IMG/VR virus record: IMGVR_UViG_2526164632_000019
Strand: one strand, 5' to 3'
Length of the DNA: 6,905 bases
From: a virus
Taxonomy: Duplodnaviria > Heunggongvirae > Uroviricota > Caudoviricetes
Of the stretch, positions 1 to 6,905 are shown piece after piece (the first letter of the stretch is position 1; the number at the start of each line of letters is the position of its first letter). Made by a program: the position numbers and the translations under genes. A model generated the notes under the pieces. It was given only the letters and a program-made list of their open reading frames with translations. It made no database searches and was not told where the DNA came from.

Positions 1-113
1 CAAAAACAGTGTTATGGGTGGATTCTCTGTATCCGGCGTTAATTGTTAACTGGTTAACGTCACCTGGAGGCACCAGGCACCACATCACAAAATTCATTGT
101 TGAGGACGCGATA

Positions 114-302
114 ATGGAAACGTTATTACCAAACGTTAATACGTCTGAAGGTTGTTTTGAAATTGGTGTCACTATCAGTAACCCTGTATTTACTGAAGAT
201 GCCATTAACAAGAGAAAACACGAACGGGAGTTATTAAATAAAATATGCATTCTTTCAATGCTGGCCCGTTTACGTCCGATACAAAAAGGATGCTGGCAAT
301 GA
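114..302 (+). CDS. Small hypothetical protein (62 aa) in the prophage early-left region. The reading frame is open back to the window edge, so it may instead be the C-terminus of a longer gene starting upstream of the window.
   Basis: ATG at 114 preceded by GAGGA (102-106) at about 8 nt spacing; stop TGA at 300-302 overlaps the ATG of the next ORF (ATGA overlap). Same strand as the downstream prophage genes. No recognisable motif. Confidence 0.4.
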   Translation: METLLPNVNTSEGCFEIGVTISNPVFTEDAINKRKHERELLNKICILSMLARLRPIQKGCWQ

Positions 303-490
303 ATACAGCATTTGCACTTGTTCTGACAGTTTTTCTTGTTTCCGGAGAGCCAGTTGATATTGCAGTCAGTGTTCACAGGACAATGCAGGAGTGTGTGACT
401 GCAGCAACCGAACAGAAAATTCCCGGTAACTGTTACCCGGTCGATAAAGTTATTCACCAGGATAATAACGAAATCCCGGCAGGTCTTTAA
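299..490 (+). CDS. Small hypothetical protein (63 aa) with a hydrophobic N-terminus (MNTAFALVLTVFLVSG), possibly a signal peptide or membrane anchor, and two Cys residues; common small prophage protein type.
   Basis: ATG at 299 overlaps the stop of the upstream ORF (translational coupling); AGGA at 286-289 upstream. The hydrophobic stretch followed by a polar region with two Cys is read directly from the translation. Start choice between 290 and 299 is uncertain. Confidence 0.5.
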   Translation: MNTAFALVLTVFLVSGEPVDIAVSVHRTMQECVTAATEQKIPGNCYPVDKVIHQDNNEIPAGL

Positions 491-582: not shown

Positions 583-3054
583 ATGAGTAAAGTCTTTATT
601 TGCGCCGCCATTCCGGACGAACAGGCAATAAAGGAAGAAGGTGCAGTCGCTGTAGCCACTGCCATTGAAGCCGGTGATGAATGTCGCGCCCGCGCAAAAT
701 TTCACTGGCAATTCCTGGAACATTATCCGGCTGCTCAGGACTGCGCTTATAAATTTATTGTCTGCGAGGATAAACCTGGCATACCCCGCCCTGCCCTCGA
801 TTCATGGGATGCTGAATATATGCAGGAAAACCGCTGGGATGAGGAGTCTGCTTCTTTTGTCCCGGTTGAGACTGAATCCGATCCGATGAACGTCACTTTT
901 GACAAGCTGGCCCCTGAAGTACAGAACGCTGTCATGGTTAAGTTCGACACATGTGAAAACATCACCGTTGATATGGTTATTAGCGCACAGGAATTGTTGC
1001 AGGAAGACATGGCAACATTCGACGGACATATCGTTGAAGCGTTGATGAAAATGCCAGAAGTTAACGCCATGTATCCGGAGCTTAAGTTGCACGCCATTGG
1101 GTGGGTTAAGCATAAATGTATTCCTGGTGCTAAATGGCCCGAAATTCAGGCAGAGATGCGCATCTGGAAAAAACGTCGCGAAGGTGAACGCAAGGAAACC
1201 GGAAAATACACGTCTGTTGTTGATCTCGCCCGCGCCAGAGCCAATCAACAGTACACTGAAAATTCAACAGGAAAAATCAGCCCGGTCATTGCTGCCATTC
1301 ATCGCGAATACAAGCAGACATGGAAAACACTGGATGACGAACTGGCCTACGCTCTCTGGCCTGGTGATGTGGATGCCGGAAACATTGACGGCAGCATCCA
1401 TCGCTGGGCAAAAAATGAAGTTATCGACAACGGCCGCGAAGACTGGAAGCGTATCTCGGCATCAATGCGCAAACAGCCTGATGCCCTTCGCTACGACCGC
1501 CAGACTATTTTTGGCCTTGTCCGTGAACGTCCGATCGACATTCACAAAGATCCCGTAGCACTGAACAAATATATCTGCGAATACCTGACGACAAAGGGCG
1601 TGTTTGAGAATGAAGAAACAGACCTGGGCACTGTTGATGTTCTCCAGTCATCAGAAACACAAACTGATGCAGTGGAAACTGAGGTATCTGATATCCCAAA
1701 AAATGAAACCGCGCCGGAAGCTGAACCATCTGTAGAGCGTGAGGGGCCGTTCTACTTCCTCTTCACCGACAAGGATGGCGAAAAATACGGTCGCGCAAAC
1801 AAACTTTCTGGTCTGGATAAGGCGCTGTCTGCTGGGGCTACTGAAATCACGAAAGAAGAATATTTCGCCCGCAAAAACGGTACATACTCAGGTTCACAAC
1901 AAAATACTGGTGCATCTGACACGACCGCACAACCAGGGCCGGTAAAAGTTACCGCTGACGAAGTAAACAAAATTATGCAGGCAGCCAATATCAGCCAGCC
2001 TGACGCCGATAAGTTACTTGCTGTATCGCGTGGTGAATTTGTTGAGGGGATTAGCGCCCCTAATGATCCGAAATGGGTCAAGGGGATCCAGACTCGCGAT
2101 TCTGTGAACCAGAACCAGCATGAATCGGAACGGAACTACCAAAAAGCGGAACAAAACAGCCCAAATGCGTTACAAAACGAGCCAGAAACGAAACAACCTG
2201 AACCAGTAGTGCAACAGGAACCGGAAAAGATCTGCACCGCCTGCGGTCAGAGCGGTGGCGGCAACTGCCCTGATTGTGGTGCGGTGATGGGTGACGCAAC
2301 ATACCAGGAAATATTCGATGGAGAGAATCAGCCTGAAGTTCAGGAAAATGATCCGGAGGAAATGGAAGGCACTGCGCATCAGCACAAGGAGAACACTGGC
2401 GGCAATCAGCATCATGCCAGCGATAGTGAAACTGGCGAGGCGTCAGATCCCTTAATTAAGGCGAACGGTCATCATAATCTCACATCCACCAGCAGAGCGG
2501 GGATTCATCTGATGATCGACCTTGAAACCATGGGAAAAAATCCCGATGCCCCGATTATCTCAATAGGTGCAATATTTTTCGATCCGCAAACCGGAGATAT
2601 GGGACCGGAATTTAGTAAGACTATCGATCTGGAAACTGCTGGCGGAGTCATTGATCGGGACACCATTAAATGGTGGCTTAAACAATCACGCGAAGCGCAA
2701 TCTGCCATTATGGCCGATGAAATCCCGTTAGATGATGCACTGTTACAATTGCGGGAATTTATCGACGAAAACTCCGGTGAATTTTTTGTTCATGTCTGGG
2801 GAAATGGAGCCAACTTCGACAACACGATTTTGCGCCGTTCATACGAACGGCAGGGGATCCCCTGCCCGTGGCGTTACTACAACGATCGCGATGTACGCAC
2901 AATCGTTGAGCTGGGGAAAGCCATAGACTTCGATGCCAGAACGGCTATTCCATTCGAAGGTGAGCGCCATAATGCACTTGATGACGCCCGTTACCAGGCA
3001 AAATACGTTTCAGCTATCTGGCAAAAACTGATCCCGAGTCAGGCTGATTTTTAA
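583..3054 (+). CDS. Prophage multidomain nuclease (823 aa): uncharacterised N-terminal domain, acidic linkers, CxxC-x8-CxxC zinc knuckle, and C-terminal DEDDh (DnaQ-like) 3'-5' exonuclease domain. Probably the type of protein often annotated as exodeoxyribonuclease VIII-like in lambdoid prophages.
   Basis: Uninterrupted 2472-nt ORF with GAGGT RBS about 8 nt upstream of ATG 583. C-terminal motifs read from the translation: Exo I MIDLETMG (D646, E648; nt 2518-2526), Exo II HVWGNGANFD (D746), Exo III HNALDD (H796, D801; nt 2968-2985). Zinc knuckle CTAC...CPDC at residues 551-566 (nt 2233-2280). It sits immediately upstream of xis-int, where lambda exo and Rac recE lie. Confidence 0.85.
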   Translation: MSKVFICAAIPDEQAIKEEGAVAVATAIEAGDECRARAKFHWQFLEHYPAAQDCAYKFIVCEDKPGIPRPALDSWDAEYMQENRWDEESASFVPVETESDPMNVTFDKLAPEVQNAVMVKFDTCENITVDMVISAQELLQEDMATFDGHIVEALMKMPEVNAMYPELKLHAIGWVKHKCIPGAKWPEIQAEMRIWKKRREGERKETGKYTSVVDLARARANQQYTENSTGKISPVIAAIHREYKQTWKTLDDELAYALWPGDVDAGNIDGSIHRWAKNEVIDNGREDWKRISASMRKQPDALRYDRQTIFGLVRERPIDIHKDPVALNKYICEYLTTKGVFENEETDLGTVDVLQSSETQTDAVETEVSDIPKNETAPEAEPSVEREGPFYFLFTDKDGEKYGRANKLSGLDKALSAGATEITKEEYFARKNGTYSGSQQNTGASDTTAQPGPVKVTADEVNKIMQAANISQPDADKLLAVSRGEFVEGISAPNDPKWVKGIQTRDSVNQNQHESERNYQKAEQNSPNALQNEPETKQPEPVVQQEPEKICTACGQSGGGNCPDCGAVMGDATYQEIFDGENQPEVQENDPEEMEGTAHQHKENTGGNQHHASDSETGEASDPLIKANGHHNLTSTSRAGIHLMIDLETMGKNPDAPIISIGAIFFDPQTGDMGPEFSKTIDLETAGGVIDRDTIKWWLKQSREAQSAIMADEIPLDDALLQLREFIDENSGEFFVHVWGNGANFDNTILRRSYERQGIPCPWRYYNDRDVRTIVELGKAIDFDARTAIPFEGERHNALDDARYQAKYVSAIWQKLIPSQADF

Positions 3055-3069
3055 TGTTCAACCCTAATT

Positions 3070-3095
3070 GCCGCTAACCGTATATAGTTAGCGGC
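3070..3095. repeat. Perfect 9-bp inverted repeat (GCCGCTAAC / GTTAGCGGC) with an 8-nt AT-rich spacer, in the gap between the nuclease gene and the xis-like gene.
   Basis: Read directly: 3070-3078 gccgctaac, spacer cgtatata, 3087-3095 gttagcggc. No downstream T-tract, so it does not look like an intrinsic terminator; more likely a protein-binding palindrome or an RNA hairpin. Confidence 0.5.
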
Positions 3096-3112
3096 GGTTA
3101 TGAGATATAGCT

Positions 3113-3316
3113 ATGAGCAGCTTATTTTTAACCGAAGATGAATTGCTAATATTAACGGGCTGCAAATATGCAAGCCACCAGCGAAAATGGTTAATGGAAA
3201 ACGGGCTTCCGTTCTATACCAATCGTAGTGGCAAACCGATTGTCAGCCGGGAGCTATTTACCTGCAATAAAACTTTACCACCACGCGAGGTAGAGCCGAA
3301 TTTTGGTGCGATCTGA
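3113..3316 (+). CDS. Small excisionase-like / DUF4224-type protein (67 aa) typically found immediately upstream of lambdoid integrases.
   Basis: The motif LTEDELLILTGCKYASHQRKWLMENGLPFYTNRSGKPIV matches my memory of the DUF4224 pattern. Its TGA stop overlaps the integrase ATG (TGATG at 3314-3318), indicating translational coupling. Confidence 0.7.
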   Translation: MSSLFLTEDELLILTGCKYASHQRKWLMENGLPFYTNRSGKPIVSRELFTCNKTLPPREVEPNFGAI

Positions 3317-4340
3317 TGGGAAGACGAAGGAAAAATCCTGAACACGAAAAATTACCTCCAAATGTATACCCAAATAAATATAGTTATGTATGGAAACCAA
3401 CATCCAGAGAATCTGTAACACTAACCGCCATCAAGGATGGTTTAGCTGCTTTATGGAAAAAGTATGAGGAAACTGTAAATAATCGCGATCGTGCAATGAC
3501 ATTCGGTCGCTTGTGGGAAAAATTCCTCGCCAGCGCCTATTACAGTGACCTCAGTCCAAGAACACAAAAAGATTATCTGCAACATCAAAAAAAGTTGCTT
3601 GCCGTATTCGGTAAGGTGCCGGCAGATTCCATAAAACCAGAACACATCCGTCGATACATGGACAAGAGAGGGGAGCAGAGTAAAACGCAAGCCAACCATG
3701 AAAAAAGCAGTATGTCCCGCGTTTACAGTTGGGGGTATGAGCGAGGGTACGTGAAGGGTAACCCATGTGCAGGTGTAAGTAAATTCAAGGCCAAAAACCG
3801 CGAACGATATGTAACCGACAAAGAATACCAGGCAGTATTAAGCGTTGCACCTCTTCCTGTTTTTATCGCAATGGAAATTGCCTATCTGTGTGCAGCGAGG
3901 GTTTCCGATGTGTTATCGCTGAAATGGGAGCAGATTGGAAACGACGGGATCTTTATCCAGCAAGGGAAAACAGGAAAAAACAGATAAAAGCATGGAGTCC
4001 ACGATTACAGGCGGCGATCGAAAAAGCAAAACAGTTACCAACATCCGCCTATGTAATCAGCAATCAATACGGCAACCGATATATGTACAAAGGCTTTAAC
4101 GAAATGTGGGTAGAAGCAAGAAATCGCGCAGGCAAAATTTCAGGTATTTTAACCGACTTCACCTTTCATGATCTGAAGGCGAAAGGAATTTCAGACTATG
4201 AAGGAAGCAGTCGGGATAAGCAACTTTTCTCTGGTCACAAAACCGAGGGGCAAGTGCTAATCTATGACAGGAAGGTTAAAGTTTCACCGACACTTGATGT
4301 CCCGTTACCTGAAAATATTCCAAGAAAATATTCCAAGTAA
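3316..4340 (+). pseudogene. int: Lambda-type tyrosine integrase with N-terminal arm-binding domain, disrupted by a -1 frameshift in an A6 run (3975-3980).
   Basis: Frame A (3316-3987) ends ...IFIQQGKTGKNR*; frame B continues ...KKQIKAWSPRLQAAIEK... to the stop at 4340. Adding one A to the A6 run would join them as ...QGKTGKKQIKAWSP.... The C-terminal box FHDLKAKG...GHKTEGQVLIYDRK carries the catalytic His and Tyr (Y at 4263-4265). The gene lies next to the tRNA-Ser 3' end. Confidence 0.85.
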
Positions 4341-4347
4341 TTCCAAG
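4311..4347. repeat. Tandem direct repeats (AAAATATTCCAAG twice, then TAATTCCAAG) overlapping the integrase 3' end; candidate integrase arm-type binding sites.
   Basis: ATTCCAAG occurs at 4317-4324, 4330-4337 and 4340-4347, about 45-80 bp from the tRNA-Ser 3' end (4393). The position is analogous to the lambda P' arm sites, which overlap the int C-terminus. Confidence 0.45.
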
Positions 4348-4392
4348 TGTGATTTTTGTCACTGACTTAATGATGTATAAGTGATTGAATTT

Positions 4393-4482
4393 TGGCGGAG
4401 AGAGGGGGATTTGAACCCCCGGTGGAGTTGCCCCCACTCCGGTTTTCGAGACCGGTCCGTTCAGCCGCTCCGGCATCTCTCC
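4393..4482 (-). tRNA. serU: tRNA-Ser, anticodon CGA, 90 nt with long variable arm; integration target of the adjacent prophage.
   Basis: Reverse complement reads GGAGAGATGCCGGAGCGGCTGAACGGACCGGTCTCGAAAACCGGAGTGGGGGCAACTCCACCGGGGGTTCAAATCCCCCTCTCTCCGCCA. Acceptor stem GGAGAGA/TCTCTCC, anticodon loop CUCGAAA, 3' CCA encoded. Matches my recollection of E. coli serU and its position next to mtfA. Confidence 0.95.
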
Positions 4483-4575
4483 GTTCAGATGGTTGCCATG
4501 ATGCCAGGAAATTTGGCATTTTAACAGTCCCTGTCCGTGCAATTTTGTTCAAGTGACGAGTTTGCGAGCAAAACG

Positions 4576-5473: not shown

Positions 5474-5549
5474 TCCTCTGTAGTTCAGTCGGTAGAACGG
5501 CGGACTGTTAATCCGTATGTCACTGGTTCGAGTCCAGTCAGAGGAGCCA
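5474..5549 (+). tRNA. asnT: tRNA-Asn, anticodon GUU, 76 nt.
   Basis: TCCTCTGTAGTTCAGTCGGTAGAACGGCGGACTGTTAATCCGTATGTCACTGGTTCGAGTCCAGTCAGAGGAGCCA. Acceptor stem TCCTCTG/CAGAGGA, anticodon loop CUGUUAA, encoded CCA. Confidence 0.97.
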
Positions 5550-5669: not shown

Positions 5670-5862
5670 GCTATGAACGCCATCACCATTTTCCCCTCGA
5701 TTATAAAACTTGAGTTATTCAGTAGTCTCCCCTCTTGCAACTCACACCCAAAACTGCCTAACGAAAAGTTATTAATTTTCAATCATATTGCTATCAGGAT
5801 TTACATTTTTTCGCTGTGCTAGAAAGGGCGCATTTATGTTAGCTCGTTCAGGGAAGGTAAGC

Positions 5863-6905
<1,043 letters not shown>

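Follow-up and report, generated by a model that had tools for sequence, protein, structure and literature searches.

The integrase gene at one end of an Escherichia coli prophage is read in two overlapping frames, and the question is whether a single lost base has split it, whether that loss is real, and whether the prophage can still leave its site. The window (the whole stretch of DNA analysed here, 6,905 nt) is E. coli/Shigella-type chromosome spanning the int-proximal end of a lambdoid prophage. An earlier note, made from the letters alone, had proposed that a 1-bp deletion in a poly-A run inactivated the integrase and immobilised the prophage; it had also pointed out that homopolymers are classic sites of sequencing error, and that slippage could in principle restore the frame at a low level. 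The features discussed below are collected in Table 1.

The prophage end in serU

The visible part of the prophage is limited to its int-proximal 4.4 kb, out of 6.9 kb in the window. At least 80% of the window is matched by 744 of 5426 complete E. coli genomes. The exonuclease and DUF4224 genes upstream of int are intact and identical to the copies of relatives. The C-terminal exoribonuclease domain of the former is recognised with an E value of 1.5e-66, and the exact 823-residue sequence is widespread, 464 blocks of the collection listing it. The stop codon of the DUF4224 gene overlaps the int start (an ATGA-type overlap), and this small gene occupies the excisionase position; its counterpart in phage Fostie is annotated as excisionase. 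On the other side of int the order is serU, mtfA, asnT, and then a broken yeeJ that runs into the end of an IS element.

Table 1. Positions of the features of the window, from left to right.
Feature	Positions	Strand	Remarks
dicB-like ORF and DUF1482 ORF	1-490		
Exonuclease gene, intact, 823 aa	583-3054	+	YdfE_N/YdfE_C and Rv2179c-like 3'-5' exoribonuclease domain
DUF4224 gene, 67 aa	3113-3316	+	PF13986, E 1.7e-15
Integrase region	3316-4340	+	
int 5' ORF, 223 aa	3316-3987	+	Arm-binding N-terminus, core-binding domain, start of catalytic domain (Arg195, Lys218)
A6 run	3975-3980	+	Site of 1-bp deletion (A7 in relatives)
A_AAA_AAC heptamer	3975-3981	+	Potential -1 slippery site made by the deletion; zero frame GGA AAA AAC AGA TAA
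int 3' part, -1 frame	3981-4340	+	Inside ORF 3888-4340; QIKAW... with His285, Lys288, His308, Tyr317
13-nt tandem repeat	4311-4347	+	GAAAATATTCCAA x2 and a third ATTCCAAG; overlaps int stop
serU, tRNA-Ser(CGA)	4393-4482	-	Attachment site
asnT, tRNA-Asn	5474-5549		

In E. coli K-12, serU is flanked by yodB and not by phage DNA, and comparison of this empty site with the window shows divergence exactly at the 3' end of the tRNA gene (4393). Within serU itself the window differs from K-12 by substitutions at 4424 and 4435, which correspond to tRNA positions 59 and 48. These two positions pair in the variable-arm stem, and the change from A-U in K-12 to G-C in the window is compensatory. The same piece of serU (window 4377-4454) is carried by other phages. 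Because of the variable-arm substitutions and the presence of this piece in phages, the 3' part of serU (about 4393-4454, the attL core) must be the copy supplied by the phage, and the crossover lies 5' of tRNA position 48. The arrangement is that of the attL of a tRNA-inserted prophage: int lies beside a tRNA gene with a phage-derived 3' part, at the point where the empty site diverges. The window thus covers the attL end of a lambdoid prophage that has integrated into serU, a site that is recognised and often occupied by prophages in STEC (PMC7067040).

Two leads were rejected. The sole isolated-phage records with this integrase (ON470580 and ON470583) were considered as a source of attP; they contain the whole tRNA gene and host flank up to window position 4500, and thus look like cut-outs of prophages and yield no attP. 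Prophage phi458 (PMC9701743), followed as a serU lead, has a P22-like integrase.

Beyond the prophage, yeeJ, which encodes an inverse-autotransporter adhesin, is frameshifted (5788-6679, around 6090-6092: GGAAATCGG); FORC 064 has one A fewer at this point. The lesion is common to the closest relative, FDAARGOS_1059, in which yeeJ carries a 'frameshifted' annotation. In the window the gene is further interrupted, at about 6607-6905, by the end of an IS21-family, IS100-like element (TGTCACGAACGGTGCAATAG...). The junction of yeeJ with the IS100-like element is absent from all complete E. coli genomes of the collection, which places the source strain outside that set, and a search for the chimeric yeeJ::IS ORF (6050-6679, with two possible starts) as an independent marker of the A6 lineage found no record.

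The prophage in serU of FDAARGOS_1059, the nearest complete relative, is about 50 kb long and has a full lambdoid late region. The IS66-family elements IS679 and ISEc22 break its tail-assembly and host-specificity J region (L034, 40297-48640), with a sodC gene between the two insertions. Since these elements sit in tail-assembly and host-specificity genes of the nearest relative, the prophage lineage was already decaying.

Two halves of one tyrosine recombinase

The A6 tract lies exactly where the earlier note had put it; the local sequence is ...caagggaaaacagg-AAAAAA-cagataaaagc.... The frame that begins with the ATG at 3316 ends in ...QQGKTGKNR* (...IFIQQGKTGKNR), with the TAA stop at 3985-3987, and the last two residues of this product (NR) are out of frame. 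The frame of ORF 3888-4340 reads ...ENRKKQIKAWSPRLQ... (...ENRKKQIKAWSPRLQAAIEK...) through to the TAA at 4338-4340, and translation from the int start does not reach its integrase part. One added A rejoins the two into a continuous 341-aa ORF containing ...QGKTGKKQIKAWSPRL..., and the A7 relatives have precisely this continuous ORF, with the sequence that had been predicted for the repaired gene. The restored 341-aa protein is matched residue for residue on 820 public contigs (P0001), where it is named integrase; the carriers are E. coli, E. albertii and other Gammaproteobacteria.

The two halves align with lambda Int one directly after the other, and likewise with the Pfam Phage_integrase, Phage_int_M and SAM-like domains. 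ORFs 3316-3987 and 3888-4340 are therefore halves of one lambda-Int-like tyrosine recombinase, an agreement far beyond chance. In the window no continuous ORF leads from the int start to Tyr317, which is encoded in the -1 frame; neighbouring ORFs match consecutive parts of one protein whose orthologues are single ORFs, and int, as it reads in the window, is a frameshift pseudogene of the lambda-Int-like family of tyrosine recombinases.

The catalytic domain of the restored protein is recognised by PF00589 over residues 183-317 (E 3e-11, 43.8 bits against a cutoff of 27.1), and the core-binding domains by PF22022 (27.9 bits) and PF14659 (24.8 bits), both above their cutoffs. Residues 1-60 align to the N-terminus of lambda Int, including the MGRRR and LPPN motifs. 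The lambda Int structures (PDB 1Z1B, 1Z1G, 5J0N) have the same three-domain layout, and residues 1-313 of the restored integrase align to them with an E value of 1.4e-12, at an identity of only about 22-25%. The two proteins share the MGRRR...LPPN N-terminus, the hairpin lysine of KTG, the GH-...-Y end and the Arg-I motif (AARVSDV in the window integrase, GQRVGDL in lambda). The genes are also placed alike: as in lambda, int adjoins the P' side of attL and follows a small gene that takes the place of the excisionase gene. The differences are that the target is the serU tRNA gene and not attB-lambda, that a lysine (HDLK) stands in the window integrase at the Arg-II position of HxxR, and that the int of the window is split by the frameshift.

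Nearer relatives are the integrases of ST64B (Sb28) and of the Klebsiella phage KpF5: almost from end to end, identity to them is 59% (between 58 and 60% by different tools). A resemblance to the CP-933U integrase is mentioned in the database record of ST64B. Integrases of this ST64B/CP-933U type, from enterobacterial lambdoid phages, share with the window the HDLKAKG box and the overlapping small gene upstream. The window gene is of the E. coli serU type with A7 reduced to A6; in the other phages int is unbroken, and the Lys-Lys pair that the A7 run specifies at 221-222 is missing.

The catalytic positions of the restored protein are R195, K218, H285, K288 (at the Arg-II position), H308 and Y317. 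In the structural alignment R195 falls at Arg212 and K218 at Lys235 of lambda Int, and in the family alignment with ST64B, KpF5, ZF40 and Fostie, H285 and K288 lie in an invariant FHDLKAKG box, followed by H308 and Y317. Box II is thus HDLK, where HxxR is canonical (residue 288, window about 4178-4180). It was considered whether this marks the whole family as inactive; the idea was rejected, as the lysine is invariant in the integrases recorded for the phages ST64B, KpF5, Fostie and ZF40, the last of which comes from an induced lysogen. Judged by its conservation in all five aligned integrases, the lysine appears to be a trait of the subfamily and not a defect.

The A run encodes K221-K222, in a beta-hairpin three residues past the catalytic Lys218. 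The 223-aa product consequently has both DNA-binding domains, for arm and core sites, but only a third of the catalytic domain, its first, and is without four of the six catalytic positions, namely His285, Lys288, His308 and the Tyr317 nucleophile. By what is established for tyrosine recombinases, such a fragment should be unable to catalyse strand exchange.

Relatives, read assemblies and the A6 run

The earlier note had suggested comparing orthologous integrases, in which a conserved two-ORF arrangement would speak against a disabling deletion. That comparison gives the opposite picture, A7 and a single ORF in the relatives. The run is A7 in 14 of 14 NCBI-derived loci inspected, and among the 1132 complete E. 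coli genomes with a match to the 80-mer around the A6 run, none matches it identically; the best matches reach 98.8%, which is the one-base gap. The corresponding A7 81-mer is present identically in 140 complete E. coli genomes, the rest differing at up to a few positions. An alignment with FORC 064 shows one extra A in the run as the sole difference across the region, and over 6620 nt the nearest complete genome, FDAARGOS_1059, differs from the window by four SNPs and this single indel. An A6 43-mer found no match among GTDB species-representative genomes, a result of little weight given that each species is represented by one genome. A single ORF also encodes the integrase in ST64B, KpF5, ZF40 and Fostie, which are more distant. 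Since the relatives carry A7 and the A6 80-mer is missing from all 1132 genomes, A6 is a rare derived state and the two-ORF layout is not conserved; on these comparisons the allele is a private variant, and a rare one, of an integrase that is very common in serU prophages.

The A7 allele is itself labelled 'frameshifted' by PGAP, with the CDS extended 25 nt past the TAA, in all six annotated complete E. coli genomes inspected, which come from diverse backgrounds (for example O157:H7, ST131 and an avian septicaemia isolate). This flag arises from the 13-nt tandem duplication at the 3' end of int, where GAAAATATTCCAA is perfectly duplicated at 4311-4336. The number of copies is one, two or three, depending on the strain, and alters the tail of the integrase past Tyr317. 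With one copy the protein has 345 residues and ends in ...ENIPSNSKCDFCH (...SNSKCDFCH; P0009, WP_332188564.1, two contigs), with two copies it is the common 341-aa form ending in ...RKYSK, and with three copies it has 360 residues (L014, L018). The single-copy form of 345 residues is presumably the reference behind the flag, and the label on the A7 alleles of these six genomes is no evidence that their integrases are dead.

An attP lying inside int, in the manner of Mx8 or SSV1, was also considered as a cause of the altered 3' end. It was rejected on two grounds: the empty K-12 site departs from the window no sooner than at the 3' end of the tRNA gene, and what alters the end of int is the tandem duplication of 13 nt, which lies within phage DNA. 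The motif ATTCCAAG occurs three times, in the repeat and the next 10 nt, against 0.34 occurrences expected in the window, and its copies are positioned between int and the tRNA core. Lambda has P' arm-type sites between int and the attachment core, and the ATTCCAAG repeats are candidate P' arm-type binding sites for this integrase.

The possibility that the genome truly has A7, and that the homopolymer was under-called in sequencing or assembly, has several points in its favour. Homopolymers are typical sites of error, A6 is absent from all complete RefSeq genomes, and a protein from an NCTC assembly (P0018) implies further changes in run length. In addition, a group of Logan contigs with related int alleles (L021-L029) has A6 at this place together with single-A deletions elsewhere, at window-equivalent positions 3570, 3593, 3674, 3705 and 3797. 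Since several further A runs of the same gene are shortened in them, these contigs fit the pattern of noisy, error-prone reads, and they serve as a negative control when homopolymer indels are judged. The many 138-aa C-terminal ORFs in Logan were rejected as recurrent, independent A6 events for the same reason, the additional A-run deletions marking noisy assemblies.

A different pattern is seen in ERR181299, SRR096435 and SRR096453, the only three Logan read assemblies with a record of precisely this truncated protein of 223 residues. Over about 1.4 kb (window about 3035 to 4422) their contigs have 100% identity to the window, A6 included, and this run alone is shortened; the gene's other long runs (A7 at 3587-3593, A6 at 3701-3706) have kept their length in the window and in all three contigs. 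The three are different runs, and the assembly that gave the window may itself derive from one of them; their accessions were not found in the literature. Together with the lack of any other indel against the nearest relative over 6.6 kb, these contigs make an artefact unlikely. The caveat about sequencing error is thereby largely answered, with a small residual chance left to it, and the A6 deletion is most probably a true mutation that a small lineage has inherited.

The deletion has the side effect of creating a potentially slippery heptamer. The motif has the X_XXY_YYZ form in the zero frame, and the ORF that follows is in the -1 frame, as expected for programmed -1 frameshifting, and a -1 slip would yield a full-length integrase with the substitution K222N (...GKNQIKAW...). 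The closest parallel is the insA-insB' pair of IS1, in which the heptamer and its zero-frame register are identical to those of the window and the downstream ORF is likewise in -1; there A_AAA_AAC is the proven frameshift site for the InsAB' transposase, without an established stimulator (PMC4066793). It might thus be argued that recoding compensates for the deletion, supplying a little full-length integrase and keeping excision at a low level. Position 222 is not invariant (it is Ala in phage Fostie), a rare AGA codon and then the stop follow directly after the heptamer, and herpesvirus thymidine kinase offers a precedent for homopolymer indels that are compensated at a low level (PMC5009743). 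Against this, A_AAA_AAC is much less shifty in E. coli than A_AAA_AAG (PMC5009743), and the RNA fold downstream is unremarkable: the 90 nt from 3982 to 4071 fold with -14.9 kcal/mol (z = -1.41), and 16 of 200 shuffled sequences do as well.

The conservation expected of a programmed site is not seen, with A6 in none of the 1132 genomes and A7 with a single ORF in all 14 loci. The arrangement in IS1 is conserved and functional, whereas the two-ORF int of the window is a rare derived allele of a one-ORF gene; the layout being unconserved, there is no selection for recoding. A compensatory role is accordingly distinctly improbable. We regard as very improbable the stronger proposal that the change from A7 to A6 is an attenuating 'savior' indel, giving an IS1-like two-ORF int with trace amounts of active Int(K222N) by slippage; if it were true, the prophage would be nearly permanently fixed, with excision at very low frequency still possible. 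The suggestion of slippage in the earlier note was reasonable, and the IS1-type heptamer of the mutant frame makes it more specific. Trace restoration of the integrase is conceivable and mechanistically plausible but, on the sequences compared, would be accidental, with a low probability of biological significance.

Still less likely than recoding is a phase switch, in which the A7/A6 run would be a contingency locus that toggles the mobility of the prophage through slipped-strand mispairing. The run does lie in an essential part of int, and a +1 slip could in principle revert the deletion. Frequent switching, however, would show both states, and the A6 80-mer is seen in none of the complete genomes while all loci inspected have A7. 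Seven bases are short for a contingency tract. Moreover, residues 221 and 222 are V/I/A/V and K/K/K/A in ST64B, KpF5, ZF40 and Fostie, respectively, which therefore cannot carry this A7 run. A role as a switch is thus highly improbable.

Consequences for the prophage

The best explanation, and one that we hold with considerable confidence, is that a real A6 frameshift inactivates the integrase, so that the prophage is unable to excise by its own Int. In the sequence of events that this implies, the A7 run would have lost one A in this lineage, most likely through replication slippage. Translation from the int start would then end after 223 residues, and the fragment, without His285, Lys288, His308 and Tyr317, would be expected neither to cleave nor to rejoin DNA. 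The prophage could then not excise with its own integrase and would be immobilised by the loss of Int. The central claim of the earlier note, that a 1-bp homopolymer deletion splits and inactivates the phage integrase, is supported by the A7 single-ORF genes of the relatives and by the loss of the tyrosine from the product.

Some activity could come from a related integrase elsewhere in the genome, or from rare -1 frameshifting at A_AAA_AAC. Copies of this int are found at a median of one place per genome; as most genomes have a single copy, rescue in trans by an identical integrase is not expected by default.

Disrupted integrases of lambdoid prophages are known from E. coli O157 Sakai, in which Sp3, Sp11 and Sp12 have a disrupted int, and the prediction for them is that they do not excise; circular forms of these three were not detected, in contrast to other prophages of the strain (PMC2669165). 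Sp3, Sp11 and Sp12 resemble the present case in being lambdoid prophages with an inactivated int, and differ from it in strain and in lesion.

Frameshifted integrases are routine as E. coli prophages decay and become fixed. The lesion described here is most probably an ordinary, lineage-specific loss-of-function frameshift in a well-known integrase family, a usual case of prophage decay. The A6 allele provides a worked example of how read assemblies can separate a real homopolymer indel from sequencing noise, and it can serve as the marker of a lineage in which the prophage at serU has probably lost its mobility.
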